This document shows, one piece after another, positions 24,424-61,594 of a stretch of 64,000 bases of DNA. Where the stretch lies: contig CAVWHO010000020.1 in NCBI GenBank assembly GCA_963754875.1, positions 32,001 through 96,000 on the forward strand. The letters are read 5' to 3'. Positions within the stretch are counted from its first letter, which is position 1. The number at the start of each line of letters is the position of its first letter. The position numbers were made by a program, and so were the translations under genes. The notes under the pieces are model-generated. The model ran no database searches and was not told the DNA's origin. It saw only the letters and a program-made list of their open reading frames with translations. Source of the DNA: Nitrospirota bacterium. Lineage in GTDB: Bacteria > Nitrospirota > UBA9217.

Positions 24424-24448
24424 TGGGGGGAGAGCATGAGAATCGAAC
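24424..24448 (-). mobile_element. att-like site 1: degenerate 3' end of a tRNA-Sec-like gene
   Basis: TGGGGGGAGAGCATGAGAATCGAAC differs by 1 nt from the three-copy consensus. An IHF-like TATCCATGAGTTA follows at 24466-24478. Confidence 0.75.
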
Positions 24449-24671
24449 TTCTATTCCCCATAATTTATCCATGAGTTATAGGCCTATACGGCCGAGGCTC
24501 AGTCTCGTATTACCGCAAAATGAGTTAAAGCTATTCTGCTCAATACAATGTATTATGTCTCTATCCCCGGGAGAAGCGTAGATTCAGAAGGTTCCGAATT
24601 CACCCCTCTCTTCGAGAAGTTTCAAGGACAGACATCGTCGGAAACGATATTGATACGAGGAGGAAACAGTA

Positions 24672-25076
24672 ATGGTGGAAAAGAATGCAGCAGGAAAAAA
24701 CATTGCGTCCTATTGTGGGAAGTGCAAAGTGAGTCGCGACCATACGATCATGACGATGGTTGGAGAAGCGGTCGATAAGGTGAGATGCCAGGACTGCGGC
24801 AGTATGCATAAGTACAGTGACCCGCTTGTTGTTCAAAAAGTCCGGAAGCCGAGAGCGAAAAAAAGCGTTGAAGAAACAGCGGAGATTGTCTGGCAGGCCG
24901 GTCTTGCAGAGGCAAAAGGAAAAGAGCGCGATTACAGCATGGCCTCGAAATATTGCATAGGCGACATTGTCAATCACCAAAAGTTCGGCAAGGGCGTTGT
25001 AATGAAGCTCTATGCCAATAAATGCGATATGCTGTTTAAGGACAGGGAACGGCTGATGGTCTCGACCAATGAATAA
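24672..25076 (+). CDS. Hypothetical protein: Zn-ribbon (CGKC...CQDC) plus C-terminal SH3/Tudor-like segment
   Basis: Two CxxC motifs; 'IGDIVNHQKFGKGVV'; GAGGAGG RBS. Confidence 0.7.
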   Translation: MVEKNAAGKNIASYCGKCKVSRDHTIMTMVGEAVDKVRCQDCGSMHKYSDPLVVQKVRKPRAKKSVEETAEIVWQAGLAEAKGKERDYSMASKYCIGDIVNHQKFGKGVVMKLYANKCDMLFKDRERLMVSTNE

Positions 25077-25397
25077 ACGGACCTCTCACTTATCTACGTA
25101 AATCAGAGGGTCTTTTCTTGATGCCTTGACGTGTCCAAATTTTCATCTCTTCACTCCTGCCCTTGTTGTCGTTTTTCAGCGTACCTCTCTGCATGCTGGC
25201 ATTTGCTCTTATAACGGCCTGATAATCAGTCCTGATATACTACTACTAACCCGGACAAGCCGGAATAAAGAGTCATTAATCACAGTCCCGCGCAGACGCG
25301 GGAACACGGAGAAAAAGCAAGCACTTGTTTTATCTGTGTGTATTGACAAAGTCAAGACCCGTGGTTTCAAAGGTTTGTATCTTAAGGAGCGTATTCA

Positions 25398-28300
25398 TTG
25401 AAGTTGAGCAACAAGACCATCCTCGGGAACCTGCCTACTGTGCTGGCGCGTCTACAAGGAAACGATCTGAAAACAAAGTGCGCCGTCTACGAGCCGCCGC
25501 TGCGATCGGAATTGTTCAGCAGCGACCAGATGGAGCAGCATGGCAAGACCCTGGCGGGTCTGCACAAGCTCTCCCCTGGGCATGCTCCTGATCGGCTTTT
25601 GGCGCGGTTGGCTGAGAATGAAGCCATCCTGACCGGGACCCGCGGTCTGCTGGTAGAGGCCGTCGAGACGGACAGCAGGATTACGCCGGCGGCTGAATGG
25701 CTGCTCGATAACTTCTATCTGATAGAAGAACAGATCCGCGCGGCAAGGAGACACTTGCCGAAGGGTTACAGCCGGGAGCTGCCCCGCCTGCAAGGTGGAC
25801 CATCTGCCGGGCTTCCGCGCGTGTATGACATCGCCCTGGAGACGATCTCGCACGGCGACGGGCGGGTGGACCCGGAAAGTCTCAGCAGTTTTCTTGCGGC
25901 CTACCAGACAGTCACCGTCCTGAAGCTTGGGGAATTGTGGGCAATCCCGATCATGCTGCGCCTGGCGTTGATCGAGAATCTCCGGCGCGTCGGCGCCCGG
26001 ATCGCTATTGACAGGATGGACCGGGACCTGGCCGGCTATTGGGCGGACCGGATCACCGAGATTGCTGCTCAGGACCCGAAGAGCCTGATCCTGGTCATTG
26101 CGGACATGGCACGCTCAAACCCGCCGCTCAAGAGCGCGTTTGTTGCGGAATTTGCCCGCAGGCTTCAAGGACAGGGTCCTGCCCTGGCAATGCCGCTCAC
26201 CTGGATCGAGCAGCACCTATCCGAGTGCAGCATGACGATCGATCAGATGGTTCAGTCGGAGAACCAGCAGCAAGCGGCTGATCAGGTGTCGATGAGCAAC
26301 AGCATCGGCAGCCTTCGTTTTCTGGCTGTGATGGACTGGCGCGAGTTCGTCGAGACGATGAGCGTTGTCGAGCAGACCTTGCATGGAGACCCTCGCGGCA
26401 CCTACGGCAAAATGGATTTCTCTACTCGTGACCGCTACCGTCACGTGGTGGAAAAGATTGCTCGGAGCGGCCGGCTGTCGGAAAGGGAGGTGGCAGTCAA
26501 AGCAATAAGGCTTGCGCGCGAGAGCACAGCCCATGGAGACGACTCTCAAGGTAAAGACGAGCGCACGGCCCATGTAGGCTACTACCTCATAGACAAGGGA
26601 CTGACGCAGCTTGAACGCCTGGCAGGTGCCCGCACATCTGTCACCGAGTCCCTTCGAAAGGCGAGCAGCCGGTTTCCTTTGTTCCTTTATCTGGGCGCGA
26701 TTATTCTGTTCACGACTATTTTTTTCTACGGCTTGGTGGCAAAGGCTCATGGTTCCGACTTGGAACCCTGGCTCCTTCTGGTAACGGGTATCCTTTCATT
26801 GATCTGCGCGAGTCATCTGGCAATTGCCGTGGTGAACTGGCTTGCTACCTTGCTCGTAGCGCCTCATTCGCTGCCGAGAATGGACTTCTCAAAGGGCATT
26901 CCGCCTGAATCGCGGACCCTGGCCATCGTCCCTACCATGCTTACCAGCACCCAAGGGATCGAAGACCTGATCGAGGCGTTGGAAGTGAGGTTCCTGGCAA
27001 ATCGTGACAATAACCTGCACTTCGGACTGCTGACTGATTTTCAGGACGCGGCAGAGGAAATGCTGTTGTCGGACGAACCGCTGTTACTTCTCGTCCGAGA
27101 GAAAATCGAAGAGCTGAATGAAAAGTATGGGGATGCAAACAGCGACAGGTTCTTCCTCTTTCACCGCCCGCGCCGATGGAACCCCAACGAGTGCGTCTGG
27201 ATGGGTTACGAGCGTAAGCGGGGAAAACTTGCAGAATTGAATTTTTTCTTGCGCAGCATAACAGATACTGATGAGATCATAAATACTCCCCCCTCACCCT
27301 CGCCCTCTCCCGCGAGGGGAGAGGGTTGTACTATTTCCCCTCCCTTGATGGGAGGGGATAAAGGGGAGGGTGTTGGTATCTCCGCGAATGGCTTCTCCCT
27401 CGTCGTGGGCAATATTGCTGCGTTGTCGAACGTACAGTACGTGATCACTCTTGACACGGATACCCAACTGCCGCGCGATTCGGCAAGGCAGCTTGTGGGA
27501 GCAATGGCGCATCCACTGAACCGTGCGCTTTACGACGAAAGCCAACAGCGCGTTGTTGCCGGGTACGGCATCCTTCAGCCGCGGGTTGCCGTAAGCCTGC
27601 CGGGAACAAACCGGTCGCGGTATGCCCGCATGGAGGGGAGCAATCCGGGCATCGATCCTTATACGCGCGCTGTCTCCGATGTCTACCAGGACCTTTTCCA
27701 TGAGGGTTCCTTTATCGGGAAGGGGATCTACGAAGTCGACGCCTTCGAGCGGGCGCTCTGCGGACAATTTCCGGAGAACCGGATCCTGAGCCACGATCTT
27801 ATCGAAGGGTGTTACGCCCGGGCCGGACTGTTGAGTGACGTCATGGTGTATGAGGAATATCCTTCCCGCTACAGCGCGGACGTGAGCCGCCGGCACCGGT
27901 GGATCCGCGGGGATTGGCAGCTTCTGCCGTGGCTGCGGCCGAATATCCCTGGTTCCGGGCCCGGTCTTGCAAAACAACGCCAAAAGAACCCCCTCTCGCT
28001 CCTGTCCCAGTGGAAGCTCTTCGACAACCTTCGGCGCAGTCTCGTGCCGTCGGCATTGACGGTCCTTTTCGTGCTCGGTTGGACGGTTTTATCATCGGCA
28101 TGGTTCTGGACCCTGTCGATACTCGGGATTATTCTGATACCTTCTTTGATCTCTTCTCTCCTCGATCTGCTTCGAAAACCAGAGGATGTGCTTCTTGGGC
28201 AGCATCTCGCTGCTACGGGGCGAGCTATCGGCAGGCGCTTTGCTCGGGATGTGTTTACGCTTGTGTGCCTTCCCTACGAGGCTTTTTTCAGTCTCGATGC

Positions 28301-31300
28301 CATTGTGCGTACTAATTGGAGAATGGTCGTTTTGCACAAGCGGCTTCTCGAATGGAGTCCGTCAGGCGACCCGGATAGAAAGAGCCAAACGGGCCTCGCC
28401 GGTGTTTGTCGGACGATGTGGTTCGCCCCCTTTCTTGCAGTCGCAATGGTGATCTATCTGGCCTTGTCGAATTTTGCTGCATGGGGAGCTGCGGGGCCTC
28501 TCCTGGCGCTCTGGTTTGCATCACCCCTCATCGCGTGGTGGATCAGCCGGCCTCTTGTCTTGCATAAAGCAAGATTGACAGACGACCAGACCCTTTTTCT
28601 CCGGAAGCTTTCGCGAAAAACCTGGGCCTTCTTCGAGACCTTTGTGGGCCCGGGGGACCATTGGCTGCCGCCTGATAACTATCAGGAGAATCCTGTCCCT
28701 GTTGTCGCGCATCGCACGTCGCCCACGAACATGGGGCTTGCGCTCCTGGCAAATTTGTCCGCCTTTGACTTCGGCTACATTGGGGCGGGGCAGTTCATCG
28801 AACGCACGACGAAGGCTCTTTCTACGATGGAAGCGTTGGCTCGATACCGGGGCCACTTCTACAACTGGTACGACACGCAGTCTCTGAAGCCGCTGTCGCC
28901 CAAGTACGTATCTACGGTGGACAGCGGCAACCTTGCGGCCCATCTGCTGACCTTGCGGCAGGGGCTTTTGGCACTGCCTGATCAGACGATCGTCCCTGCG
29001 AGATTGTGTGACGGGCTCTCCGACACTCTGGAGATTCTCGTGGAAGCCCTGGAAGCTGAAGAACCGCCTGGCGACTCGACGAAGCTCGTTGAAGTCCTTG
29101 CTCGACTTCGGAAGGACCTGAATTCCTCGTACTCATCCCAGCCAAGTACGCTCGCTGCTGCGCGACTCTGCCTTGAGAGCCTAACAACGTCCGCAGACGA
29201 GCTGCTTTCCCGGATCGATAATTCCAATATCCTTCTGGAGAACCAGGCAGCATGGTGGGCGCGCGCCTTTGCCGCACAATGCAGGGCCGCGCAAAACGAA
29301 CTGACCCTCCTCGTCCCCATGTCCGATCTCAGCAGCGATGAGATCCCGACGTTGCGCGATCTGGCTCATAGAGGAAACGATAGTGCCGCAGAGAGGATTC
29401 TTGCTGTCGAACGGCTTGCAGTGCAGTGCGGTGAATTGAGCCGCATGGAGTACGAGTTCCTGTTCGACAAGGCGAGTCATTTGCTGTCCATCGGGTACAA
29501 CGTCGACGGCCGCAGGCGGGATACGGGTTACTACGATCTGCTGGCTTCGGAAGCGAGACTCTGCAGTTTCGTAGGGATTTCCCAAGGACAATTACCGCAG
29601 GAGAGCTGGTTTGCCCTTGGCCGCCTGCTCACGAACGCGGGCGGAGAGCCGATCCTCGTTTCCTGGAGCGGTTCGATGTTCGAATACCTCATGCCGCTCC
29701 TGGTGATGCCGACGTATGAACGCACGCTGCTCGACGAGACCTGCAAGGCGGCGGTGGCCAGACAGATCGAGTACGGGAGGGAGCGCGGTGTGGCTTGGGG
29801 CATTTCGGAGTCCGGCTACAACACGATCGACGCTCATCTCAATTACCAGTACCGCGCCTTCGGCGTACCCGGCCTTGGACTCAAACGCGGGCTCGCCGAC
29901 GATCTGGTCATCGCTCCCTATGCCTCAATGCTTGCGCTCATGGTGGCGCCCGAGGCAGCCTGCCTGAATCTGCAGCGACTCGCTGCGGAAGGAAGTGAGG
30001 GCAAATTCGGGTTCTATGAAGCGATCGACCACACGCCTTCCCGTCTGCAGCGCGGCCAATCGAGCAACCTGGTCCGGTCCTTCATGGCGCATCATGTAGG
30101 CATGAGCTTTCTCTCCCTGGCCCATCTGCTCCTGGACCGTCCCATGCAGAAACGCTTCGAGTCGGACCCCTTGTTCCAGGCAACCATGCTTCTCCTCCAG
30201 GAGCGCGTGCCGAGGGCCACGGCGTTCTATTCGCAGATTGCCGATCGTTCCGATTCCTATGCGGCTTCCTCCGGCATGGAGGCGTCGTTGCGCGTCTTCA
30301 CCAGCCCGGACACGTTGTCTCCGCAGGTGCAGTTGCTGTCGAACGGCAGATACCATGTGATGATCACAAACGCGGGGGGCGGGTACAGCCGCTGGAAGGA
30401 CATCGCGGTCACTCGCTGGCAAGAAGACACGACCCGCGACGATTGGGGAGCGTTCTGTTACATCCGCGACGCGGAAAGCGGGGAGTTCTGGTCAACAGCA
30501 CATCAGCCTGCGCTCAAACGCTCGAAGAATTATGAAGCAATTTTCTCGGAAGGCCGCGCTGAGTTTCGCCGCCGGGACTATGACTTTGACACCCATACCG
30601 AGATTGCTGTTTCTCCGGAAGACGATATCGAGCTGCGGCGGATCACGATCACCAACCGCAGCCGGACACGTCGAGAGATCGAGGTCACGAGTTACGCTGA
30701 GGTCGTGCTTGCGCCGCCTGCCTCGGACGCGCTGCATCCGGCGTTCAGCAATCTTTTTGTTCAGACGGAAATCATCGAGCAAAGGCAGGCGATCCTCTGC
30801 ACCCGCCGCCCCCGCTCCCAGGACGAGCACGCGCCATGGATGTTCCATCTGATGGCCGTGCACGGTGCGGAAATCGGCCAGGTTTCCTATGAGACCGATC
30901 GCCTGCAGTTCATCGGTCGAGGAAGGACCGTTGTCGACCCGCGGGCAATGGACAGGCCAGGAGCGCTCACGGACAGCCAGGGCTCGGTGCTCGATCCGAT
31001 CGTCGCTATCCGGTATCGGATCACCCTTGATCCGGAGAAATCGGCAACCATCAATATCGTCACCGGCATCGGCGAAACCCGGGACGTCTGTATGGGCCTT
31101 GTTGAGAAATATCAGGACCGGCGGCTTGCGGACCGCGTTTTCGACCTGGCCTGGACCCACAGCCAGGTGCTCCTTCGCCAGATCAATGCCACAGAAGCCG
31201 ATGCCCAGCTTTATGGACGCCTTGCCGGCTCTGTTCTCTATGCCAATTCTTCTCTGCGGGCCGACCCGGGCATCCTCCTGAAGAACCGCCGCGGTCAGTC

Positions 31301-34153
31301 CGGTCTCTGGGGCTACTCCATTTCCGGAGATCTCCCGATCGTGCTCTTGCGGATCGAAGATCCGGCAAATATCGAGCTGGTGCGCCAGCTCGTACAGGCC
31401 CACGCGTACTGGCGTCTCAAGGGTCTGGCAGTAGACCTCGTGATCTGGAATGAAGATCACGCCGGTTACCGGCAGCTTTTGCAGGAACAGATCATGGGGC
31501 TCATTGCCGCAGGCGTTGAAGCGAACGTGGTGGAGCGACCGGGCGGCATCTTCGTAAGACCAATGGACCAGATATCGACCGAGGACCGTATCCTGCTTCA
31601 AACAGTGGCCCGCGCCGTGATCACCGACAGCCTGGGCACGCTTGCGGACCAGGTAGACCGCCGCGCTCTTCCGGCCGCGCCGGCGCCGCGCCTCGTACCA
31701 ACGGGTCGCCACAGGCCTGAATCCGGAGGCGCCGCAATAACAGCCCGCAACGACCTGCTGTTCTTTAACGGTATCGGTGGATTCACGCCTGACGGCCGCG
31801 AGTACATCATTACGACCACGCAGGGGCAGAGTACTCCGGCGCCCTGGGTAAACGTGATGGCAAACCCGCATTTCGGGACAGTTATCTCGGAGAGCGGAGC
31901 TGCTTACACATGGAGAGAAAATGCTCACGAGTTCCGCCTCACTCCCTGGAACAATGATCCGGTAAGCGATTCCAGTGGAGAAGCTTTTTATCTCCGCGAT
32001 GAAGAGAGCGGCCATTTCTGGTCCCCCTTGCCGCTGCCTGGCTGCGGGGCGATGCATTACGTGAGCCGCCATGGATTCGGTTACAGTGTCTTTGAACACA
32101 TGGAGGACGGGATCAGCTCGGAGGTCTGGGTTTACGTTGCAACTGATGCATCGATCAAATTTACGGCACTGAAGGTGAAAAACAGATCGGGCCGCCGGCG
32201 ACGGATCTCAGCCTTCGGGTACGTGGAATGGGTGCTCGGAGATTTGCGGCCGAAAACATCGATGCATGTGATCACCGAAATCGACCCTAAAACAGGCGCG
32301 ATCTTCGCGCGGAACCCTTATAACTCGGAGTTTGCTGACCGGACCGCGTTCTTTGATGCGGGCGAGGCGACCCGGACCGTGACCGGCGACCGGACCGAGT
32401 TCCTCGGCCGCAACGGCGTACTTCGGAGCCCGGCTGCGATGACCCGTAGCCGGCTTTCCGGAAGGGTGGGGGCTGGTCTGGACCCCTGCGCCGCTATCCA
32501 GGTCCCCTTCGATCTGGCGGACGGGCAGGAGCGGGAGATTATCTTCAGGCTCGGGGCAGGGAGAAACACCGAGGACGCAGGTAACCTGGTGCGGCGCTTC
32601 CGGGGGGCCGTTGCCGGCCGCGGGGCGCTTGAAAAGGTCTGGGAGTACTGGAACCACACCCTCGGCGCAGTGCAGGTGGAAACGCCCGACCAGTCCGTCA
32701 ACATGCTGGCCAACGGCTGGCTCCTCTACCAGACCCTGGCATGCCGACTTTGGGCGCGGTCCGGATACTACCAGTCCGGCGGAGCATTCGGTTTCCGCGA
32801 CCAGTTGCAGGACGTGATGGCGCTCGTCCATTCCGAACCGCGGCTCGTACGAGAGCACCTTCTCCTCTGCGCGGCCCATCAGTTCAGGGAGGGAGATGTC
32901 CAGCACTGGTGGCATCCCCCGACAGGACGGGGTGTGCGTACACGCTGCTCCGATGATTTTCTCTGGCTGCCCCTGGCCGCGTGCCGCTACGTTCTCTTAA
33001 CCGGAGACACGGGGGTGCTGGATGAAACCGTCCGTTTCATCGACGGCCGGCCGCTCAACCCGGACGAGGACTCCTATTACGATCTTCCTCATGCGTCTGA
33101 AGAAACAGCAAGTTTGTACGATCATTGTGTGCGGGCCATTCTGAAGGGCCTTACCCGCGGCGAGCACGGTCTGCCGCTCATCGGCTCCGGTGATTGGAAC
33201 GACGGCATGAACCTGGTTGGCAGGCTTGGCAAGGGTGAAAGCGTCTGGCTTGGATTTTTCCTGTATGAAGTGCTTGTGCGTTTTTCGGAGATTGCGCGGC
33301 TCCATGGCGATCCGTCGCTCGTTGAACGCTGCCAGGAGGAAGCTGCCCGTTTGCGCGGGGATATCGAGGGAAATGGCTGGGACGGCGAGTGGTACAGGCG
33401 TGCTTTTTTTGACGACGGTTCTCCTCTGGGTTCTGCAACCAATCCTGAATGCCGCATCGATTCCATTGCGCAAAGCTGGTCCGTTCTCTCGGGCGCCGGA
33501 GATCATGAACGCTCCCTCACTGCAATGGAATCAGTGAACAAGCTGCTTGTTCGACGGGACCACAACCTGATCCAGCTCCTTGCCCCGCCGTTCGACAAAT
33601 CGGATCTGAATCCGGGCTATATCAAGGGCTACGTTCCCGGTGTAAGGGAGAACGGCGGGCAGTACACCCACGCGGCAATCTGGACTGCCATGGCCTTTGC
33701 CGCACGGGGCGACAGCAACCGGGCGTGGGAACTGCTCAAAATGATCAACCCGATAAACCATGCGAGAACGCCGCGAGAGGTCGCGATCTACAAGGGCGAG
33801 CCGTACGTTGTCGCCGCCGACGTGTATGCGGCCCCTCCTCACATCGGACAAGGCGGATGGACCTGGTACACGGGATCGGCCGGGTGGATGTACCGGCTGA
33901 TCGTGGAGTCGCTCCTGGGGCTGCAGCTTGAAACAGACAGCCTGCGCTTCGAACCGTGCCTGCCCAAGGAGTGGGATTCGTTCAAGGTGCACTACGGTAC
34001 CGGGAAACCATCTACCATATCACTATCCGACAATTGCGCGACAACAGCGAGGCAAGCGTGACCGTCGACGGCGTTATGCAGAGCAAGAAGACTATTCCCC
34101 TTGTTGACGACCGTCAGGAGCATGAGGTAGAGGTGAGAATTGCAGCGAAGTGA
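25398..34153 (+). CDS. ndvB: Cyclic beta-1,2-glucan synthase (Cgs/NdvB/ChvB family, with C-terminal GH94 phosphorylase domain); frameshift near 33992
   Basis: 'WMGYERKRGKL', 'YVITLDTDT', 'LSHDLIEG', 'RRHRWIRGDWQ', 'YYDLLASEARL', 'SGYYQSGGAFGFRDQLQD', 'GDWNDG', 'GVRENGGQYTH', 'GWTWYTGSAGW'. The tail YRETIYHI... lies in ORF 33956..34153. Confidence 0.92.
27288..27372. repeat. Palindromic REP/MITE-like double hairpin inserted in frame within the glucan synthase
   Basis: CCCTCTCCC/GGGAGAGGG (27303-27325) and TCCCCTCCC/GGGAGGGGA (27336-27358), enclosed by CACCCTC/GAGGGTG; encodes PPSPSPSPARGEG...SPPLMGGDKGEG. Confidence 0.8.
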
Positions 34154-34222
34154 GTGATTGAAAATTTTGTAATGGCCTCAAAATGGCCTGTACATGCTCT
34201 GCGCTTTCAAACCGCCTCAAGA

Positions 34223-34308
34223 CCCATCCCCACCCCGACCCTCCCCTTGAAAGGGAGGGAGAATTCATTTCTCCCCCTTCAAGGGGGAGACTGAAGAGGG
34301 GGATGGGT
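34223..34308. repeat. Intergenic member of the same palindromic family
   Basis: CCCATCCCC...CCCTCCC-cttgaaa-GGGAGGG...TCTCCCCC-ttcaa-GGGGGAGA...GGGGATGGG. Confidence 0.75.
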
Positions 34309-34437
34309 TTTCTGTGAATCGTCTATACTATTTTAAGACGACTAAAAAAATTATCACATCACATCGTACTTCACTATGATCGTCAAGTTTCTTTCCCGCA
34401 TGTTGTACTAACTCCAAATGTCCTATATACTATTCTT

Positions 34438-36410: not shown

Positions 36411-36548
36411 AGTGCTGCCGGGTTAGATCAGGGTCTATCTGTTTCACAGCGCATCTCGCATCTCGTTTCTCAAAAAAAGAACGCTGTTATTTCCCGTGCG
36501 AAATTCACGGCCCGCTGATCCACCTCGGACAAATACGCAGACAGTCTC

Positions 36549-47919: not shown

Positions 47920-47937
47920 TACGCGACGACCTTTTCA

Positions 47938-50790: not shown

Positions 50791-50891
50791 CTGTTGGTCA
50801 TCCGGGAATCCTCTTCGGTAATGCTGATTCACCGGCATGACGGCTCATTTTACAACGGATTGCTTTTAAAATTCAGAAAGGGAGGCATGAC

Positions 50892-51314: not shown

Positions 51315-51341
51315 CTGATCACTTATTTTCACTTGGAAGCA

Positions 51342-51484
51342 ACTTTGACGAACTCGTAAAAATTTGTTTTTCACACGAAGGCACAGAGAACACGAAGAAA
51401 ATATAATTGATAATAAAAGATTCTTCTCTTTGTGGCTTCGTGGCTTTGTGTGAGGCAAGACTTTTTACGAATTTATCAACTTTG
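51342..51484. repeat. Nested inverted-repeat element (MITE-like)
   Basis: TTGACGAACTCGTAAAAA...TTTTTACGAATTTATCAA encloses TCACACGAAGGCAC...GTGGCTTTGTGTGA. Confidence 0.6.
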
Positions 51485-51526
51485 ATAAAGAATTAACCGC
51501 AACTTGGAAAAGGTAGGAAGAAAAAT

Positions 51527-51896
51527 ATGAATAGTGATCAACTTTATCTCGGAAGCAACAAAAGAAATATCTGAAAAGAGAGCTGCCTTTGCTCCGGAAA
51601 TAATGGAGGCATTCCGTAACTTTAGCAAAAAAGTCTTTAAAGAGGGCGCTCTTCCCGAAAAAACGAAACAGCTTATCGCCGTGGCAGTGGCGCATGTAAC
51701 TCAATGTCCTTATTGCATTCACGACCATACCGCACAGGCCATGAGAAAAGGAGCCAGCAAAGAAGAAATTATGGAAGCCATTTGGGTGGCTTCTGAAATG
51801 CGGGCCGGAGCAGCTTATGCTCATGCTGCATTGGCAATAGATGAAAAAAAAACCATAGAAGGCCACTATGATTTATTTACGACCTTGCTCGGATAA
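51527..51896 (+). CDS. Carboxymuconolactone decarboxylase/AhpD-family protein (CPYC); probable frameshift near the start
   Basis: 'GALPEKTKQLIAVAVAHVTQCPYCIHDH...EEIMEAIWVASEMRAGAA'. Confidence 0.85.
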
Positions 51897-52057
51897 GTGA
51901 TCTGTTTCTTGAAGTGGAAACGAATTCGAAAAAAAATAAAAATTTTTGTATTTCCAGAACACGTGAAAACACCGCTTAAACGCCGTTGCCTGAAAAATCT
52001 TCTTGTGCTGTTGTTTTGTTTAAGCGCAGGTAAAAAGAAAGATGCCGGGCGGACAGT

Positions 52058-52537
52058 ATGACAACGAATGCAAACAGCCGACCGCCGCTACCGCCGTTCA
52101 ATCGGGAAACCGCGGTCCAGAAGGTACGTATGGCCGAGGATGGTTGGAATTCACGCGATCCCGAGCGGGTATCGCTTGCCTACACGGTTGACAGCAGATG
52201 GAGGAACCGGGCCGAATTCATTTCAGGACGCGAGGAGATCGTCAGGTTCCTGCAGCGCAAATGGGCAAAGGAGCTCGACTACCGGCTCATCAAGGAAGTA
52301 TGGGCGTTTCATGAAGCGCGGATAGCGGTACGCTTCGCGTATGAGTGGCACGACGACGCGGGCAATTGGTTCCGGTCGTACGGCAACGAGAACTGGGAGT
52401 TCGACGAATACGGACTGATGCGCGTCCGTCTTGCGAGCATCAACGATCTCCCGATCAAAGAAGCGGACCGGAAATACCGCTGGCCGCTGGGTAGACGTCC
52501 CGATGATCATCCCGGGCTTTCGGATCTTGGACTCTGA
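52058..52537 (+). CDS. DUF1348/SnoaL-like (NTF2 fold) protein
   Basis: '[24 protein letters not shown]', '[13 protein letters not shown]'. Confidence 0.9.
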
Positions 52538-52618
52538 TCAAGGGTTATCTGTCAGTTACGAAATTGGTCAGGTATAATAAATTAAAGACTACAACTCAAA
52601 TAGAAGGAGGAAGAGAAA

Positions 52619-53263
52619 ATGAAGAAAAGATTGTTTAAGATGGCAGTTGTATTTTTAGGAGTGTTCATAGTACTTGCGGCACCGTATTCTTTTGCCAAGG
52701 AAAAGAAGGTGGCAGTCAAATTCAACCACAAAACGGTCGAGTTGCAGCTTGCGCTCCGTGATCTATGGGTGGGTCACATATTCTGGGTCAGGAACGTAGT
52801 CCTGGCGACGAAGTACGGAGACGCCGATGCCGCGAAGGCTGCCGAGGACAAGGTGGTAGAGAATGCAAAAGCGATAGGCGAAGCCATCGTCCCGATTTAC
52901 GGTAAAGAGGCAGGCGACAAACTCTTTGGCCTTCTGGCCGGGCATTACGGCGCGGTCAAGGATTACATGACCGCTGCTTTCGCCGGCAACGCCGATGCCA
53001 AGGGTGCGGCCGTTGAGAAGCTCAAAAAGAACGCCGAGGAAATTGCGACGTTCCTGAGCTCGGCGAACCCTAACTGGCCCAAACAGACGCTCGTCGACCT
53101 GTTGATGGCCCATGGCGCCCATCATGTTGCTCAGATCGACCAGGTCAATATTAAAGACTTCGCAGCTGAAGCGAAGACCTGGGATGATATGAGAAAGCAT
53201 ATTTATGTGATCGCCGACGCTCTGGCGGGCGGCATTGTGAAACAGTTCCCCAAAAAGTTCTAA
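52619..53263 (+). CDS. Exported all-alpha hypothetical protein with His/Met residues
   Basis: Signal peptide ending SFA; 'LRDLWVGHIFWVRN', 'LAGHYG', 'LMAHGAHH', 'MRKH'; AAGGAGG RBS. Confidence 0.75.
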   Translation: MKKRLFKMAVVFLGVFIVLAAPYSFAKEKKVAVKFNHKTVELQLALRDLWVGHIFWVRNVVLATKYGDADAAKAAEDKVVENAKAIGEAIVPIYGKEAGDKLFGLLAGHYGAVKDYMTAAFAGNADAKGAAVEKLKKNAEEIATFLSSANPNWPKQTLVDLLMAHGAHHVAQIDQVNIKDFAAEAKTWDDMRKHIYVIADALAGGIVKQFPKKF

Positions 53264-53413
53264 AACGAAGATCAGAACTTCCGCTGAGCGGATTGGCGGA
53301 ACGGAAGAATGCTGCAAAACCACGGTGTGAATCAGCTGGGGAGCCGGCGGTGAAAAATGTTTGCAGCATTCATCCGTTTTCTTACAGTCGCAGAACGCCA
53401 GGGAGTTTCATCG

Positions 53414-54286
53414 ATGACCACAAGAGGCGCATTTCTCCAATTCCTCAGCAGATTCTTCTGTTCGCTGCTGGCGCTGCTATACTTCGTCCTCCCGCCAACT
53501 GCATTCGCGACAACCACTGACATAGAAAAAGGGAAAGAGATCTTCAATGCCAAATGCACGCCCTGCCACACGATCGGCGGGGGAAGGAAGGTCGGTCCTG
53601 ATCTCCGGGGCGTAACGGCCGATCACCCGAAGACCTGGCTTTTCTCCTTCATATCCGATCCCGATAAAATGTTCAGTGCGAACGACCCCATGGCAACCGG
53701 TTTGCTGAAAGAATACAAATGAAGATGCCGAATTTGGGGCTGTCGGCCGAAGACGTCAATGCTGTTATCAGTTATCTTGAAACGCAGGCAGGCGCCGAAC
53801 AAAAGACTGCTGCACCAAGTCAGGTAGAAGCGAAAGGACCGTCACCTGCTGCAGATGCTGAGCGAGGGGGAAAATATTTTTCCGGACAGCTCGTATTCAA
53901 GAATAACGGTCCGGCGTGCATGGCCTGTCATACCGTGGCAGGTATCAAGTTCTGGGGCGGCGGCACCCTCGGCCCGGATTTGACGGATATTTATGCGCAG
54001 CTGGGCGAGGGAATCGTCTCCCTGCTCGTAACTGTGCCTTTCCCGACCATGAAGCCGATCTTCGACAACCATCCGTCTGTCGGAAGACGAGGCCCGTGAT
54101 CTTGCGGCTTTTCTCAGGGGGACAGCTTCCCGGCACGCTGAAAATCATACTACGCAGATCATAGTGAGTTCTTTCCTTGCCTTTGTCATTCTGATGATCA
54201 TCATCCTCGTCCTTTGGCGGAACCGGCTCACGAGCGTCCGTAAGGCATTAGTGGAGAGGGCAGAGCGGGAGGATAATATTCGATGA
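53414..54286 (+). CDS. Membrane-anchored diheme cytochrome c (NarC-like); frameshifts near 53718 and 54075
   Basis: Signal peptide; CTPCH...GPDL...KMP; CMACH...GPDL...FPTM; C-terminal TM helix; ATGA overlap with narG. Confidence 0.8.
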
Positions 54287-57200
54287 GCTGGATACAGGAC
54301 ATCATGGATCCCGAAGAAGCGGCTCTGGGAAGAGATGTACCGGAACCGCTGGCAGCATGACAAGCGCGTCCGCAGCACCCACGGCGTGAACTGCACCGGC
54401 GGTTGCTCCTGGGAAGTCTACGTGAAAGACGGCATCGTGACCTGGGAGATGCAGGCCACTGATTACCCGCGTCTCGAACCAGGCCTCCCGCCCTATGAGC
54501 CCCGCGGGTGCCAGCGCGGGATCACGTTCTCCTGGTATGTCTACAGCCCCTTGCGGGTCAAGTATCCCTACGTGCGAGGCGTCCTCCTAGACCTGTGGCG
54601 CACGGCGCGGGCAGCGCATGCAGATCCTGTTGCAGCCTGGGCCTCTATTGTCGAGAATGAGGCGAGCAGGAAGAGCTATCAGCAGGCGAGGGGCAAAGGG
54701 GGGCTGCGCCGGAGCACCTGGGACGAGGTGCTGGAGATCATTGCTGCGTCCACGATCTATACGGCAAAAAAATACGGGCCTGACCGGGTCATCGGCTTCT
54801 CTCCCATCCCCGCCATGTCCATGCTGAGTTATGCTGCGGGCACGAGGTTCCTCCAGCTTTTCGGCGGCGTGGCCCTGAGTTTCTACGACTGGTATGCTGA
54901 TTTTCCTCCTGCATCTCCCGAGGTCTGGGGCGAGAAAACGGACGTGGCCGAGAGCGCGGACTGGTACAACAGCAAATTCATCGTCACCATGGGCGCAAAT
55001 CTCAACATGACCCGAACGCCTGACGTGCATTTTGTTGCCGAAGCGCGGAACAACGGAACCAAGCTCGTCGTGTGCTCGCCGGACTTCAGCCAGGTCGCGA
55101 AATACGCCGACTGGTGGCTCCCGATCAACGCGGGACAGGACGGCGCTTTCTGGATGGCGGTCAATCACGTGATCCTGAAGGAATTTCATGTTGATTCCGA
55201 AGTCCCTTATTTTACCGATTATCTCAAACGCCTAAGCGACTGCCCCCTTTCTGGTGGAGCTGGAAGAACACGAGGGAGCATACACGGGCAGGGAGGTTTC
55301 TGCGCGCAGACCGTATAGATCGCTACCATAAAGAAGAAAAGGGCGAATGGAAGTTCCTCGTCTTCGACAGGATATCCAGCGAACCCCGCATGCCCAAGGG
55401 CAGCATCGGGTTCCGGTGGCAGGAGCAAAAAGGCAAGTGGAACCTCGAGATGAAGGACGGAACGGATGGAAGCGCGATCGATCCACTCCTCACACTCCTC
55501 GATACGCGCGAAGGCGCGCTCCCTATGGTCTTTACCGAATTCGCGAGCAAAAAAAACTTCTCCCGGCACGTACCGGTACGGTACGTGCAGACCGACAAGG
55601 GGAGGATAGCCGTTACAACGGTCTTCGACATTTTAATGGCGCAGCATGGTGTCGGCCGTGGGCTCGAAGGAGAATATCCGGAGAACTACGCTGCTCAGGA
55701 CGCTCCTTATACACCGGCCTGGCAGGAGCAGTATACCGGTATCAGCAGGGACACGGTGGTCCGCTTCGCCCGAGAATGGGCGCAGACCGCAGAGAAGACG
55801 AAGGGCAAGTGCATGGTCATCGTCGGCTCGGGTGTCAACCACTGGTACCATGCGAACATTACTTACCGGACCGCGATCACGGCGCTCATCCTTTGCGGCT
55901 GTGTTGGGAAGAACGGCGGCGGTCTGAACCACTACACAGGGCAGGAAAAGCTCGCGCCCGAGGCATCGTGGAAGAGCCTCGCCTTCGCCCTTGACTGGAC
56001 GCACGCTCCCCGGCTGGTGAATGCGCCGTCCTTTCATTACGTGCACTGCGACCAGTGGCGCTACGACGATCCGCAGCATGAGGGTGAGGTCCTGGGGTTC
56101 CGGCACCCCATGGACATGCAGGTGAACGCAGTGCGCCAGGGCTGGCTGCCCTTCTTCCCCCAGTTCAATCGAAATCCCATCGAGCTCGTGCGTGAGGCCG
56201 AAAAGGCAGGCGCAAAGAGCGAGACAGAAATCATCGACTGGCTCGTAAGACAGCTGAAGGAAAAGAAAGTGCAGTTCGCCGTGGAAGACCCGGACGCTCC
56301 CGAGAACTGGCCTCGCGTCTGGTATATCTGGAGGGGGAACGCGCTTTTGACGAGCGCCAAGGGGCATGAGTATTTTCTCCGCCATTATCTCGGCACGGAT
56401 TCGAATGCCGTGGCCGATGAAACAGGGAGCGATAAGACGAGCGAAGTAAAGCGGGATGGCCCGGTCCCCACGGGCAAGCTCGACCTCGTTGTGGACATCA
56501 ACTTCCGCATGGATTCCTCGGCCCTGTATTCGGACATCATTCTTCCGACTGCGACGTGGTATGAAAAGGACGATCTCAATACGACCGATCTCCACTCGTT
56601 CATCCATCCTTTGTCCGAAGCGGTCCCCCCGTGCTGGGAATCGAAGACCGACTGGGACATTTTCAAAGCCGTAGCGGAAAAGGTGAGCGAGCTCGCGCCT
56701 GCTCATTTTCCCGGGCCTTTTCGGGACATCGTGGCAGTTCCGCTCGGACACGATACGCCGCAGGAAATATCCCAGCCCGAGGTCAAGGACTGGTACCGGG
56801 GCGAGTGCGATCCCGTGCCGGGAACAGACCATGCCGCAATTCAAGGTGGTCGAGCGCGATTACGTAAATCTGCATAACCGTTTTGTCTCCTACGGACACC
56901 AGGAGCGGGACGAAGGCATGGCTGAACGCGGGATCCGGTGGGACATCAAGGACCTTTACGACGATTTCACGAAAGCTGCTCCGACGATCACCTGGAACGG
57001 AAAACAGTATCTTTCTCTTACGAATGTCCGGGAAGCAGCGAACGTGCTTCTTCATTTTGCGCCGGAGACGAACGGAGAGATCGCTCATCGAGGTTTCAAA
57101 GCACTCGAGAATGCGGTCGGACTTCCGCTTGCAGACCTTGCGGACGACAATCGTGCTGTCCGGCGAAGTTTTGACGACCTGGTTGCACAGCCCCGGAGGA

Positions 57201-57886
57201 TCCTCACGAGCCCGATGTGGACAGGCATCACGAACGAAGGCAGGGCCTATGCGTCCTTCTGTCTCAACGTCGAACGGCTCGTGCCGTGGCGCACGCTCAC
57301 GGGACGTCAGCATTTCTACGTAGACCATCAGGGATACATCGACTTCGGAGAAAACCTCCCGGCGTTCAAATCGAAGATCGGACTTCAGGACACGCGTGAT
57401 CTCTTGAAAAACGCTCCATCGGACAAGGCCCTCGTCCTCAACTGCATCACGCCCCACGGGAAATGGCACATCCACAGCACCTATTCCGATAACCTGATCA
57501 TGCTCACGCTTTCACGCGGCGTGGAGCCCTTCTGGTTGAACCTCGAGGATGCGAAAAAGATTGGAGTAAAGGACAACGATTGGATAGAGGTGTACAACGA
57601 CAACGGCGTGATCGTGACCCGCGCGGCAGTGAGTGTCCGCATCCCCCGGGGAGTCGGGATCTTTTACCATGCACCGGAGCGGACCGTCTCGTTCCCCAAG
57701 TCGCCCACAAGAAACAACCGGCGCGGAGGCGGGACGAACAGCATAACACGCATCCGGCTCAAGCCGTCGCTTATGGTCGGCGCATACGCGCAGCTGTCTT
57801 TTGCCTTCAATGCCTGGGGCCCTCCGGCAGGGGACCGGGACACGTACACGATCGTGCGCAAGCTGGAAGGGAAACCGGTTTTTTAG
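54283..57886 (+). CDS. narG: Respiratory nitrate reductase/nitrite oxidoreductase alpha subunit; frameshifts near 54312, 55247-55320 and 56827
   Basis: '[14 protein letters not shown]', 'EPRGCQRG', 'SFYDWYAD', 'ESADWYN', '[11 protein letters not shown]', '[12 protein letters not shown]'; no Tat signal. Confidence 0.92.
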
Positions 57887-57918
57887 CGAATCCTAAAATA
57901 GGTTCAGATGACAACAAA

Positions 57919-57993
57919 CGCACCCTAAAGGGTGCGGCTACAAAAAGAAATATCAACATGCTTCGTTTTGGTAGCCGCAGGCTTCAGCCTGCG
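57919..57993. repeat. Pair of inverted GTAG-type REP hairpins between narG and narH
   Basis: CGCACCC-taaa-GGGTGCG-GCTAC ... GTAGC-CGCAGGC-ttca-GCCTGCG. Confidence 0.75.
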
Positions 57994-58034
57994 AGAATAG
58001 CTTACAAGTCAGTGAGGGTTTGAAGGAGTTTCTC

Positions 58035-59524
58035 ATGAATATTCGCGCGCAGGTTTCCATGGTGTTTCATCTCGATAAATGCATCGGCTGCCACACTTGC
58101 AGCATCGCCTGCAAGAACATCTGGACGTCGCGCCGCGGGGCCGAGTACATGTGGTGGAACAACGTGGAGACCAAGCCCGGGACCGGCTATCCCACACTTT
58201 GGGAGGACCAGGAGAAATACTCCGGCGGATGGCTCAAGGGAAAGGACAAGCCGAAGCTCCGGCTCCAGGGCCGGGCCGGTGCGCTCGGCAATATCTTTTT
58301 CAATCCCCGCCTGCCGACCATGGATGACTATTACGAGCCCTGGACCTATCGCTACGAAGAGCTGTTCACCGCGCCGCAGGGGAAGGATCAGCCTGTTGCG
58401 GCCCCTGTTTCGCAGATGACGACACAAGCACATCGACATCGAGGCCGGCCCAAACTGGGACGATGACCTCGGGGGTTCGTCCATTTACGCAGCGAACGAT
58501 CCCAACTTCAAGGCTTTAACTGTGGAAGAGCGGAGGCAGGTCTTCGAACTCGAGCGCATGGTCATGTTCTATCTGCCGCGCATCTGCAACCACTGCCTGA
58601 ACCCCGGTTGCGTTGCAGCCTGTCCGTCCGGTGCGATCTACAAACGGGGAGAGGACGGCATAGTACTCGTGAGCCAGGAAAAATGCCGGGCCTGGCGCAT
58701 GTGCATCTCCGGGTGCCCGTACAAGAAAACCTATTTCAACTGGAACACGGGCAAGGCGGAAAAGTGCATCCTCTGCTATCCCCGGCAGGAAACAGGCCAG
58801 GCGCCTGCGTGTTTCCATTCCTGCGTCGGCCGCATCCGCTATCTGGGGGTCGTGCTCTATGACGCGGACCGGATCAGCGAGATGGCGAATTTGCCGGATA
58901 AAGACCTTGTTGAAGGCCAGCAATCGCTGATCCTCGATCCCTTTGACAAGGAAGTCGTTAAAAAAGCGAAAGAGGACGGCATTCCGGACGCTGTGCTCGA
59001 AGCGGCCCAAAAATCGCCGGTGTACTGGTTCGTAAAAGTATGGAAGCTGGCCCTGCCGCTCCATCCCGAGTTCCGGACCCTGCCCATGCTTTTTTACGTG
59101 CCTTCTCTCACGCCGGTTATGGCCTCGGTCTCGAACGGGCTCTACGAGCTCAAGGAATCTCTTTTCGGCACTTCCAACAGTTCCCGTGTCTCGACCCGCT
59201 ACCTTGCCTCGCTCTTTACTGCCGGAGACGAGGACGAAATCGTTCGGGTGAACAAAAAGCTCCTGGCAGTACGCATGTACAAACGGGCGGAAACCGTGGG
59301 AGACCTGGACCAAAAGGAAGTGAAGAGAATACTCGAGGAGGCGCGCACAACACCTGAAGAGGCTGAGGCGATCTTTCGGCTTGACTTCTCTGCCATCTTT
59401 CAAGGACCGGTTCGTGATACCGCCGTTCCTGCGCGAACAGGCTGTCGAGTCCCTGCAGAAGCCTCAAACCCACAAGGAGGAGGCGGGCTTCGGATTTATT
59501 CGTCCTCCGAAGCGCGGGTGGTAG
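58035..59524 (+). CDS. narH: Nitrate reductase beta subunit; frameshifts near 58420 and 59382
   Basis: 'DKCIGCHTCSIACKN', 'WWNNVETKPG', 'PRICNHCLNPGCVAACPSG', 'CRAWRMCISGCPYKK', 'EKCILCYPR'. Confidence 0.93.
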
Positions 59525-59527
59525 CTC

Positions 59528-60058
59528 ATGATGATGCAAATGAACAAAAATATATACAATTTGCTCGCTGATGTCCTTGAGTATCCCGGTCCCGGGGTCA
59601 GGGGGCAGGCGGAGGCGTGCAGCCTTGCTCTGAAATCCTTGAACGTGAAGGCACAAGGCCGTTTCGAAGCATTCTCGAAATTTTGCACAACCATGCCGGT
59701 CAGCCGCCTCGAAGAACTGTACACCGACACCTTTGATCTTCAGGCCATCTGCTGCCCCTACGTGGGCTTTCACCTCTTCGGCGAGGACCGCGGCCGGGGC
59801 ATGTTCATGGTCAAGTTGAAGGAGCATTACCGTAAAGAAGGCTATCCCGGGAACGGAGAGCTTCCTGACCATATCAGCGTCATGCTCCGCTTCCTGTCTC
59901 ACGCGGAACGTAATAACGAGACCATGGACCTGATCAGCTATTGCCTTATTCCGGCAATGAAAAAAATGGTTTCTCTATTCAAGGATAGCGCTAACCCCTA
60001 CCAAGGAGTCCTCGAAACGGCACTCGTGCTGCTCGAACCGGAAAAAGGCGGGTCCTAA
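59528..60058 (+). CDS. narJ: Nitrate reductase assembly chaperone
   Basis: 'LEYP', 'EELYTDTFDL', 'GEDRGRG', 'ELPDH'. Confidence 0.85.
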   Translation: MMMQMNKNIYNLLADVLEYPGPGVRGQAEACSLALKSLNVKAQGRFEAFSKFCTTMPVSRLEELYTDTFDLQAICCPYVGFHLFGEDRGRGMFMVKLKEHYRKEGYPGNGELPDHISVMLRFLSHAERNNETMDLISYCLIPAMKKMVSLFKDSANPYQGVLETALVLLEPEKGGS

Positions 60059-60062
60059 CCGA

Positions 60063-60668
60063 ATGTATATAATTGAAGAAGAAAAGAAGCTCAAGTTTGA
60101 AAAACTGCTTGCGGAGTCCGTGCATAGTCATGGACACCTGTGCCCCGGGCAGGTACTCGGCGTGAAGATGTCCCTTCGGGGGCTGTGCGAGATCGGCATT
60201 CAGGACCCGAAGTGCAAACAGCGAAAAGACTTCATCGTAATCGTTGAAATGGACCGCTGCGTGCTCGACGCGGTGCAGTCCGTGACCGGCTGCAGCCCGG
60301 GCCGAAGAACGTTAAAGTTCATGGATTACGGCAAAATGGCAGCGACCTTCGTTAACCTGCAGACGGGACGATCCGTCAGAATTCTTGCGCGGGAGGACTC
60401 CCGGGAACTGGCTAAAGAGTACGCGCCGGATTTCGCTGACGTCTACGCTGCACAGTGCGAAGCGTACAAAAACATGTCCGATGAGCTGCTGTTTGATGTT
60501 ACGAACGTTGAGGTCCTGCTAAGACCCGAAGACATGCCGGGCAGGCCGCTCAGACGTATCCGCTGTGACAGCTGCGGAGAACAGGTGCAGGACATGCGCG
60601 AGATCTATCGCAACGGGAAGGTGTTGTGCAAGCCCTGCGCTGATGGAGGGTATTACTTCACAAAGTAA
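60063..60668 (+). CDS. FmdE/FwdE-family protein with a C-terminal C4 zinc finger
   Basis: 'HGHLCPGQVLG', 'CVLDAVQSVTGCSPG', 'DYGK', 'CDSCGE...CKPC'. Confidence 0.88.
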   Translation: MYIIEEEKKLKFEKLLAESVHSHGHLCPGQVLGVKMSLRGLCEIGIQDPKCKQRKDFIVIVEMDRCVLDAVQSVTGCSPGRRTLKFMDYGKMAATFVNLQTGRSVRILAREDSRELAKEYAPDFADVYAAQCEAYKNMSDELLFDVTNVEVLLRPEDMPGRPLRRIRCDSCGEQVQDMREIYRNGKVLCKPCADGGYYFTK

Positions 60669-60691
60669 CTCTTAAAAGGAAGGGACCATTC

Positions 60692-61417
60692 ATGGCAGAA
60701 AGCATTTACTTTGTCGTATTTCCTTATATTGCCGTTGTGCTGGCCATGGGAGTTGGGCTCTATCGGTATTTCACGAACCGGTTCTCCTATTCGAGCATGT
60801 CCACCCAGTTTCTAGAAAACCGCGCACTCTTCTGGGGTTCAATTCCCTGGCATTACGGCATCGTACTTATCCTGATCGCCCACTTGCTTGCGACCGTGAT
60901 CCCGGGTTTTTGGGTTTCGCTTCATAGCAACAGGGTTTTGATGATGGTCATAGAGCTTGTCGGCGGGGCCCTGGGTCTGCTTACGCTTCTGGGCATCGCA
61001 GTCCTCATAATCCGAAGGCTCGTCAATGCAAAGACACGACACGTTACCACGGTCATGGACTGGATACTTCTTATTGACCTTTTGCTCCAGGTCGTCGCAG
61101 GCCTTTATATCGCACTCTTTGTGCGATGGGGGTCCCTATGGTATGAGTACATTGCCACACCGTGGCTCATTTCCCTCGCTGGGCTGTCGCCGCGGACCGA
61201 CTTGGTAACTTCGTTGCCGTGGATCGTCCGGTTCCACATGGTCAATGCCTTCGTCCTCATCGGCCTTTTTCCGTTCACCCGTCTTGTGCACATTTTTACC
61301 GTGCCGCTCTCCTACTTGTGGAGATCGTACCAGGTAACGATCTGGAACATTGATCGATCAGGAGGAAAAGCTGAGATGAAAGTCGAAACTAAAGGTAGTA
61401 CTCGTGAAGTGGATTGA
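60692..61417 (+). CDS. narI: Nitrate reductase gamma subunit (cytochrome b)
   Basis: 'FVVFPY', 'WHYGIVLILIAH', 'FHMVNA...FPFTRLVH'; 5 TM helices. Confidence 0.92.
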   Translation: MAESIYFVVFPYIAVVLAMGVGLYRYFTNRFSYSSMSTQFLENRALFWGSIPWHYGIVLILIAHLLATVIPGFWVSLHSNRVLMMVIELVGGALGLLTLLGIAVLIIRRLVNAKTRHVTTVMDWILLIDLLLQVVAGLYIALFVRWGSLWYEYIATPWLISLAGLSPRTDLVTSLPWIVRFHMVNAFVLIGLFPFTRLVHIFTVPLSYLWRSYQVTIWNIDRSGGKAEMKVETKGSTREVD

Positions 61418-61530
61418 AGGTTGGCATATCTCATATGCATTGCTCGGGCTTTGCCGCAGCCTCCGCGGTCGCGAACCTCTTTATCCGACGTTCGTTCGAA
61501 TCTGAAGTGGGACGCGCATGGGCTCGCCAT

Positions 61531-61594
61531 ACGGTACGAGTTTTTCAGGGCTAGTTCGTTGATTAAAAAATGGCGGGAGAGCATGAGAATCGAA
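61531..61594. mobile_element. att-like site 3: ~65-bp direct repeat of 41054-41120, including the tRNA-Sec-like core at 61571-61594
   Basis: ACGGTACGAG.TTTTCAGGGCTAGTTCGTTGATTAA....TGGCGGGAGAGCATGA.AAT is shared by both sites. Confidence 0.82.

Follow-up and report, generated by a model that had tools for sequence, protein, structure and literature searches.

Integrase-less islands bounded by partial tRNA-Sec copies downstream of selC in a Nitrospirota genome

Here, we describe a row of genomic islands downstream of the selenocysteine tRNA (tRNA-Sec) gene, selC, of a Nitrospirota bacterium (GCA_963754875.1, GTDB lineage UBA9217). The analysis started from a 64,000-nucleotide stretch of contig CAVWHO010000020.1 (C20), which we refer to as the window and which corresponds to G000:C20:32001-96000, where G000 is the source genome; positions given without a prefix are those of the window. 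The host assembly is a metagenome-assembled genome (MAG) of 4.3 Mb in 22 contigs, 90% complete and with 4.5% contamination. Four co-oriented islands of 12–20 kb each, bounded by partial tRNA copies, follow selC on this contig, and we consider below both how they are delimited and how such a stack may have arisen.

Partial tRNA-Sec copies and the layout of the stack

Three copies of the tRNA-Sec 3' end lie in the window, 16,671 bases (copy 1 to copy 2) and 20,476 bases (copy 2 to copy 3) apart:

24424..24447, minus strand: copy 1, running from the T-loop to CCA; one substitution; marks the distal limit of island D
41095..41119, minus strand: copy 2; one substitution plus a 1-nt insertion, in the T-loop part; lies between islands C and D
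61571..61594, minus strand: copy 3; all 24 nt match; lies between islands B and C

An earlier reading of the window from its letters alone (the original prediction) had taken these sites for three repeats of one 24-mer. The sites, their coordinates, and their single orientation all stand, but the quoted 24-mer is letter-perfect only at 61571–61594, as copy 1 reads TGGGGGG... (a single substitution) and copy 2 reads ...CATGAAAATTCGAA (one substitution and the 1-nt insertion). A search allowing up to three mismatches matched copies 1 and 3, with a match in none of 100 shuffles, and missed copy 2 owing to its substitution and insertion; copy 2 has a 16-nt exact BLAST match to the tRNA and contains the exact 15-mer CATGCTCTCCCGCCA, and is also evident on direct reading. 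The flanks that the prediction had described as shared are likewise seen in our alignments, with ~50 nt of left flank common to copies 2 and 3 and ~45–65 nt of right flank common to copies 1 and 2. The window also lacks an intact tRNA and an integrase, as had been stated: ARAGORN detected no tRNA in it, Rfam no family at gathering score, and there was no PF00589 integrase.

The intact selC gene was expected to the right of the window on the minus strand, and this is where it was located (C20:121416-121514, minus strand, 25.4 kb from the window). ARAGORN assigns it as tRNA-SeC(tca), 99 nt in length; its T stem has 5 bp, its variable arm 9 bp, and its acceptor seven pairs plus a G.G eighth position. 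Its score against Rfam RF01852 is 62.3 bits, compared to a cut-off of 47. The gene thus combines the UCA anticodon, the long variable arm, the extended acceptor with a 5-bp T stem, and the score above the gathering cut-off by which a bacterial tRNA-Sec is recognized. Its 3' end is ...CTCATGCTCTCCCGCCA, the final 24 nt of which are the repeat, and selA and selB are found 4–7 kb upstream. A search for further copies had also been suggested, and a fourth partial copy is present beyond the window at C20:105824, such that there are four islands rather than the two originally proposed. The partial copies (C20:105824, 93571, 73095, and 56424) make five copies together with selC, all on the minus strand and within one 65-kb stretch. 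BLAST of the 4.3-Mb assembly found no further tRNA-Sec 3' copy outside contig C20, and a scan of C20:1-125000 with the 15-mer at up to three mismatches returned the four partial copies, selC, and two three-mismatch matches without T-loop context.

In the direction of the tRNA, selC is followed by island A (15.6 kb) and copy 4, island B (12.2 kb) and copy 3, island C (20.5 kb) and copy 2, and island D (16.6 kb) and copy 1. This is the layout of a tandem tRNA-integrated array, which is headed by an intact tRNA and has its blocks delimited by repeats of the tRNA 3' end, all in the same orientation. That the blocks are insertions relative to an ancestral locus is seen from both sides of the stack, using a comparison set with a single genome per species. 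Six relatives show synteny on the upstream side of selC, and in the genomes G031 and G026 a cytochrome c7 gene and its terminator come after the distal tRNA copy of the island. The counterpart of this flank in our genome is displaced to C20:7804-9322 (gene at C20:8865-9263), and a second copy extends up to C20:12924, which places them 43–47 kb past copy 1; from this position, ~112 kb of sequence up to selC are particular to this genome in comparison to those genera. We also tried a TPR gene of the left flank as an anchor for the empty site, and rejected it, as it lies 0.5–1.2 Mb from selC in G001 and G002.

Attachment arms and the missing integrase

Aligning the junctions in tRNA orientation reveals a proximal (P') arm of ~50–65 nt at the start of each island and a distal (P) arm of ~65–75 nt at its end, in which a short word is present once or twice at an 11-nt spacing. 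The arms in the window are as follows:

24448..24490, minus strand: truncated distal (P) arm of island D; spacer TAACTCATGGATAAATTA kept, docking-repeat doublet lost
41041..41094, minus strand: proximal (P') arm of island D; TACCGT class, doublet CTCGTACCGTGGTCGCACCGTAAG in tRNA orientation
41120..41184, minus strand: distal (P) arm of island C; TACCGT class, doublet GTACCGTGATCGTACCGC, which reads as integrase end codons ..SYRDRTAK..
61523..61570, minus strand: proximal (P') arm of island C; TACCGT class
61595..61657, minus strand: distal (P) arm of island B; TACAGCA class, doublet ATACAGCAATCATACAGCA

The class of the word is the same at both ends in all four islands, where the truncated distal arm of island D is classed by its spacer, and such matching is expected of the boundaries of real elements. 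The word ..C(G/A)TACCGT.. marks either end of islands A, C, and D, only the 43-nt spacer being left of the distal arm of D, and island B, of the TACAGCA class, carries ATACAGCA at both ends. The two segments of the window that the original prediction had described as related elements (C and D) therefore have arms of the same class, and their proximal arms are near-identical over ~50 nt. Across the genome, doubled words occur at these junctions only, save for one match on C8 and one on C17, both of which look like chance. Similarity of the arms extends to other genomes: the distal arm of island B has ~95 nt in common with that of the island in G002, and island B shares both its arm class and >200 nt of its proximal end with island 3 of G012. 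Scanning metagenomes for the TACCGT distal arm together with the core gave one contig of 2.1 kb (L056), which is another integrase-less junction and at that length could derive from either a circle or an array, and the corresponding scan with the proximal arm and core gave 0 records. The arm words are putative arm-type integrase binding sites.

Each element of a tandem array of this kind would be expected to encode a site-specific recombinase, and none of the islands in our array does so. PF00589 has 14 matches in the genome, none of them in C20:56,000-121,500, and tblastn with four integrases from selC islands of relatives gave nothing in the array better than E=0.2, and elsewhere in the genome only XerC/D-like loci at 21–27% identity. 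The 80 open reading frames (ORFs) of the islands, compared with Pfam, PF00589, and PHROGs, include no integrase, excisionase, relaxase, or phage family. The distal arms do, however, retain 7–9 integrase end codons, reading ..SYRDRTAK at copy 2 and ..SYREHTV* at copy 4 (the asterisk marking a stop), with the integrase frame closed two or three codons further upstream, and the distal arm of L056 follows the same pattern (..PYRDRTV*). These residual codons indicate that an integrase gene formerly stood there.

The missing integrase family was found in relatives, where it abuts the distal tRNA copies. With up to two mismatches, the 24-mer is present in 32 of the 61 genomes compared, all in the same family as our genome (31 of 36 family genomes besides G000, vs 0 of 24 in other families). 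Two or more copies occur on one contig in G001, G002, G006, G009, G026, and G031 (two each) and in G012 (four), with an intact tRNA-Sec at the head of each row. The integrase, where present, is at the far end of the island and is oriented toward the partial tRNA copy, with its stop no more than a few tens of bases away:

G031 island (L035:4896-6125): integrase intact, 409 aa
G026 island (L036:4444-5721): integrase intact, 425 aa
G012 island 1 (L028:13803-15062): integrase intact, 419 aa
L045, another Nitrospirota chromosome (L045:1628-2848): integrase intact, 406 aa
G006 island: integrase disrupted
G012 island 3: integrase pseudogene, residues 247–408, with stops

No integrase was found in island 2 of G012 or in the islands of G001, G002, and G009. 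An integrase beside selC in G001 was considered as the island's own and rejected, as it is part of an insertion of the IS91 type, in which Y2 transposase and Zn_Tnp_IS91 domains occur. With the L045 protein as the query (E <= 1e-30), the integrase family was detected in 7 of the 64 genomes of the host family, with no match in G000, G001, or G002, and a search for related loci by integrase alignment returned only three genomes, all of them already in the set.

These integrases combine a PF00589 catalytic domain with an N-terminal CxxC...CPKC motif, which is zinc-ribbon-like and has no Pfam match. In lambda-type integrases, the N-terminal position is that of the arm-binding domain, and the AACCTCGTACCGTG words are putative docking targets of the CxxC...CPKC domain. 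The words also overlap the gene itself: the tail of the L045 integrase, ..STYRERTLLNKKP*, is encoded over the arm words TACCGTGAGCGTACC, and, reading the arm DNA against the alignment consensus, CTCTCCCCGCGTTCTCCC would encode SPRVLP in integrases of the CTCCCCGC class.

The integrase-bearing islands are ~10–13 kb in length and carry a cI-type helix-turn-helix (HTH) gene, HTH_17, an HTH_36/DnaD-like protein, an IstB-like ATPase, and a ClpP-capsid fusion, and by this gene content they look phage- or satellite-like rather than conjugative. Island 1 of G012 (L028:5537-15080, 9.6 kb), for example, carries the integrase, a cI-like HTH gene, HTH_17, an HTH_36/DnaD-like gene, and a fusion of ClpP protease and major capsid protein of 767 aa, and resembles either a small phage or a satellite that encodes a capsid. 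At the other extreme, in G009 (L038:172-1033) the distance from the intact selC to the partial 3' copy is 763 bp, a nearly empty unit bounded by attachment (att) sites. The single 11-kb island of G002 (L034) has a proximal arm of the CTCCCCGC class and a distal arm of the TACAGCA class, resembling a fusion of two stacked elements whose shared junction was lost.

A third arm class is weakly suggested to the left of copy 1:

24360..24423, minus strand: sequence beyond copy 1, weakly resembling a P' arm of a third class, with a single TTTCTCCCCGC

We compared this sequence with the P' arms that follow selC in G002 and the first island in G012. From its single CTCCCCGC word, an older fifth island may run leftward out of the window; no distal att site for such an island was found left of copy 1 by the doublet and flank searches or by the 15-mer scan of C20:1-125000.

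Cargo of the islands

The cargo between the arms in the window is as follows:

24491..41040, plus strand: cargo of island D; by Pfam, orfX, a GH94 protein, RNase II, DUF1003, BON, and an FtsH paralogue
41185..61522, plus strand: cargo of island C; by Pfam and PHROGs, from a channel gene to molybdoenzyme genes
61658..64000, no strand assigned: start of the island B cargo; an unknown ORF and a phosphoribosyltransferase, with the island continuing to C20:105823

The principal genes of island D encode a cyclic beta-1,2-glucan synthase-like GH94 protein (25398–34061), RNase II (34438–35931), and the FtsH paralogue (39073–40953), and homology to the orfX-Cgs locus of congeners begins at ~24491–24518. 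Another RNase gene, RNase R-like, is found outside the array (L014:17647-19603) in two ORFs, possibly as the result of an assembly indel.

Island C carries a SLAC1-type channel, a truncated universal stress protein (Usp), hemerythrins, an NrfD-like protein, a PAS-GGDEF protein, DUF488, an HhH-GPD glycosylase, a hydrolase, a ferritin, two cytochromes c, and a NarGHJI-like molybdoenzyme cluster (54335–61417) that is interrupted by three frameshifts and is intact in G002. The NarG-like gene lies in three frames (54335–55318, 55390–56877, and 56831–57886) and the NarH-like gene in two (58020–58466 and 58522–59571), compared to single frames of 1254 and 510 aa for the G002 orthologues; the splits are either real pseudogenes or assembly indel errors. 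The DUF488 gene of island C (47536–47919) has a paralogue of the same N3i subclade at L015:5109-5591, between copy 1 and the ancestral flank.

Islands A and B carry ABC/FtsX transporters, a sigma-54 two-component pair, and a hybrid-cluster protein, among others. Island B additionally contains an IS200-type transposase (L013:10272-10715) and, at its proximal end (L013:12331-12818), what appears by eye to be a transposase-like fragment, with no family match in the PHROGs scan. The DNA of this proximal end is ~76–85% shared with the start of island 3 of G012. The integrase-less islands of relatives (G001, G002, G012) carry sigma-54 activators, patatin, glycogen phosphorylase, FtsH, and a PAS kinase, and insertion sequences of the IS110, IS66, and IS91 types are also found in the islands of relatives.

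Origin of the stack and neighboring sequence

Taking the layout, the arms, and the residual codons together, we consider it likely that the stack was laid down by successive site-specific integrations at selC, and that the integrase genes have since been lost. The attP site of an incoming element would recombine with the 3' end of selC by means of its integrase, restoring the tRNA, and each newcomer would then enter the restored selC and displace the older islands outward. This order of events is implied by the copies, as a partial tRNA copy can stand between two blocks only where the one nearer to selC was inserted there later than the one beyond it. The integrase genes would subsequently have been lost and both att ends kept, leaving islands that would be immobile alone and movable only by the integrase of an element of matching arm class. 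Such islands would fit the definition of cis-mobilizable elements (CIMEs), which keep attL and attR and have lost their recombination genes: the core and class-matched arms are present at both ends of all four islands (truncated at the distal end of D), the IS200 transposase is the only mobility gene, and the codons of the former integrase tail remain.

Several observations weigh against this account. Comparison of the 80 ORFs with PHROGs gave no phage structural, replication, or excision family, and the sole match in the integration-and-excision category is the IS200 transposase of island B. The GC content of the islands (0.49–0.55, vs a genome mean of 0.53) is not foreign-looking. The orfX-Cgs(-FtsH) module of island D is found in at least seven congeners at 77–89% nucleotide identity, and the Nar-like cluster of island C in 1 of 14 congeners (G002) at 83–85%, in each case away from selC and with no tRNA copy or arm adjacent. 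The cargo is thus accessory DNA of the genus, present away from att sites as well, and this account does not explain its position between the arms. With the MAG 90% complete, a cognate integrase could also sit on unbinned DNA. Finally, in all four of the integrase-less TACCGT arms that keep the doublet (copies 2 and 4, G001, and L056), the similarity reaches as far as the outermost word and stops at its outer edge. Random deletion or decay would not yield so repeatable an edge, whereas selection for working arms, or a single integrase-less ancestor that has since spread, would.

These sharp edges lean toward a different view, in which the islands belong to a living lineage of non-autonomous cargo cassettes, each consisting of two arms and a tRNA-like core that enclose exchangeable genes of cellular type, which would spread and be reshuffled by borrowing the integrase of class-matched phage- or satellite-like helpers. 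In line with this, the integrase is absent from five of six TACCGT distal arms (copies 1, 2, and 4, G001, and L056; present in L045), the word region is identical at 32 of 33 nt between copy 4 and G001, a different species, when only about two thirds of the spacer is, three TACCGT islands with unrelated cargo stand in one array, and the integrase-less islands of relatives likewise hold cellular cargo. We nevertheless regard a living lineage as rather unlikely. The sample of arms is small, and conserved binding words could be leftovers of a recent active past. In addition, no island with the same cargo was found in two genomes and no helper was found in this genome, both of which lean toward inert islands. 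The integrase family was found in just the 7 of 64 family genomes given above, the metagenome scans provided just the one short contig, and no circle, empty site, or polymorphism was seen, the best sequencing run found sharing 0.08 of the words of the stretch. Inert scars are a possibility that we hold tentatively, and slightly more readily: here, the elements would be long dead, the arms persisting by chance, the cargo delivered or rearranged by ordinary homologous recombination and insertion sequence activity in a plastic region, and the junctions recognizable only where the core has been kept. The differing neighbors of the shared modules in every congener examined are consistent with this, as are the IS200 gene and transposase fragment of island B and the insertion sequences in relatives, the imperfect copies 1 and 2, the loss of the doublet from the distal arm of D, the two arm classes on the single island of G002, and the frameshifted Nar-like genes. 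Chance persistence does not readily provide arm classes that match at both ends of all four islands, the near-identity of the C and D proximal arms, or sharp and repeatable arm boundaries, and the inner partial copies still require the later entry of the inner block at selC. The original prediction had offered mobilization in trans or decay as alternatives, and these data narrow the choice.

That there are no att sites here at all, and that the pattern reflects misassembly, duplication of the segment around selC, or a dispersed repeat with a chance likeness to a tRNA end, we consider highly improbable. The split NarG, NarH, RNase R, and intron reverse transcriptase genes, as indel errors or pseudogenes, are what could be said in its favor. 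Against this, the copies are confined to 65 kb downstream of a real selC and are all in its orientation, the blocks between them are mutually unrelated and so do not stem from a segmental duplication, the same layout is present on single contigs in seven other family genomes, and integrases adjoin such copies in relatives.

Several known systems resemble the stack in part. As outlined in PMC5704250, whose reference list includes Pavlovic 2004 and Bellanger 2011 for this model, CIMEs and tandem accretion are described for ICESt1/ICESt3 of Streptococcus thermophilus, and the islands resemble CIMEs in that outline in the att ends kept, the integration genes lost, the stacking at the 3' end of a target gene, and the need for a related integrase. 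They differ in that the integrase-bearing relatives are phage- or satellite-like and not conjugative, that four integrase-less units stand in a row without a resident helper, that their cargo consists entirely of cellular genes, element genes having left no remnant, and that two or three arm classes share one tRNA core. Enterobacterial selC islands such as LEE (the enterocyte effacement locus) and Shigella island 2 (SHI-2), with P4-type integrases, usually keep the integrase next to selC and carry virulence cargo. Ours have in common with them the tRNA-Sec target and the bounding direct repeats of the tRNA 3' end, but here the integrase family is located at the far end of the element and is absent from our own genome.

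In the tRNA-flanked islands and tycheposons of Prochlorococcus, in the outline given in 10.1101/2020.12.28.424599, repeated integration at one tRNA pushes older elements inward into the island, where partial tRNAs and fragmented integrases are scattered and most of the DNA is not recognizable as an element. Serial integration at one tRNA and partial tRNAs strewn through the islands are shared with that outline, and the host phylum, the integrase family, and the intact, class-matched arms around each block are different. The integrase and replication modules that stand beside the cargo in tycheposon-like elements are both lacking from our islands; G031 and island 1 of G012 have an integrase with HTH_36/DnaD-like and IstB-like genes. 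Like an integron cassette array, the stack consists of co-oriented gene packets between recombination sites, without a recombinase in the packets, but its cores are tRNA-derived with lambda-like arms and its units are multigene blocks of 12–20 kb with their own promoters. We rejected an integron, as there is no IntI, attI, or attC, no tyrosine recombinase in or beside the array, and the repeats are tRNA 3' ends and not attC hairpins.

Tandem integrase-less islands at tRNA genes are thus already well known, and what is novel here is the host phylum, an integrase family with docking words in its own tail, and the number of clean, class-matched, integrase-less units. A literature search over titles and the beginnings of abstracts found no paper on selC islands in Nitrospirota, which is not proof of absence. 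The window illustrates a tRNA gene as a long-lived zone of plasticity in an uncultivated phylum, with genes for cyclic-glucan synthesis, proteases, RNases, signaling, and a respiratory molybdoenzyme stacked between intact recombination ends. If those ends work, one incoming element could move any block, or all of them jointly, which would account for ordinary cellular genes travelling without plasmids or complete phages, and the class-matched arms, together with the words in the integrase tail, would form a code for which helper moves which block. If they are dead, the stack is an ordinary, though highly legible, scar. A broader proposal, which we consider unlikely as it stands, is that selC is a docking point of modular gene exchange, at which integrase-less cassettes of 12–20 kb, with metabolic and regulatory genes between two arms and a tRNA-like core, are moved and reshuffled between genomes by small phage-satellite-like helpers, whose integrases have several arm specificities and docking words in their own last codons, a design that may recur at selC in other soil phyla.

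To the left of the stack, positions 1–24000 of the window encode giant surface-type proteins, comprising DUF11-repeat proteins of 1201+ and 1490 aa and a 1714-aa OmpA-domain protein, as well as TPR proteins of 634 and 1067 aa, MotA/ExbB, and OmpA. Further out, a group II intron (RF02001, 135 bits; RF01998, 65 bits) extends from C20:9324 to ~11400 (L041), with a reverse-transcriptase ORF that is apparently split. The intron abuts the terminator of the cytochrome c7 gene at C20:9324, and the second copy of this gene and terminator is at C20:~12500-12970.

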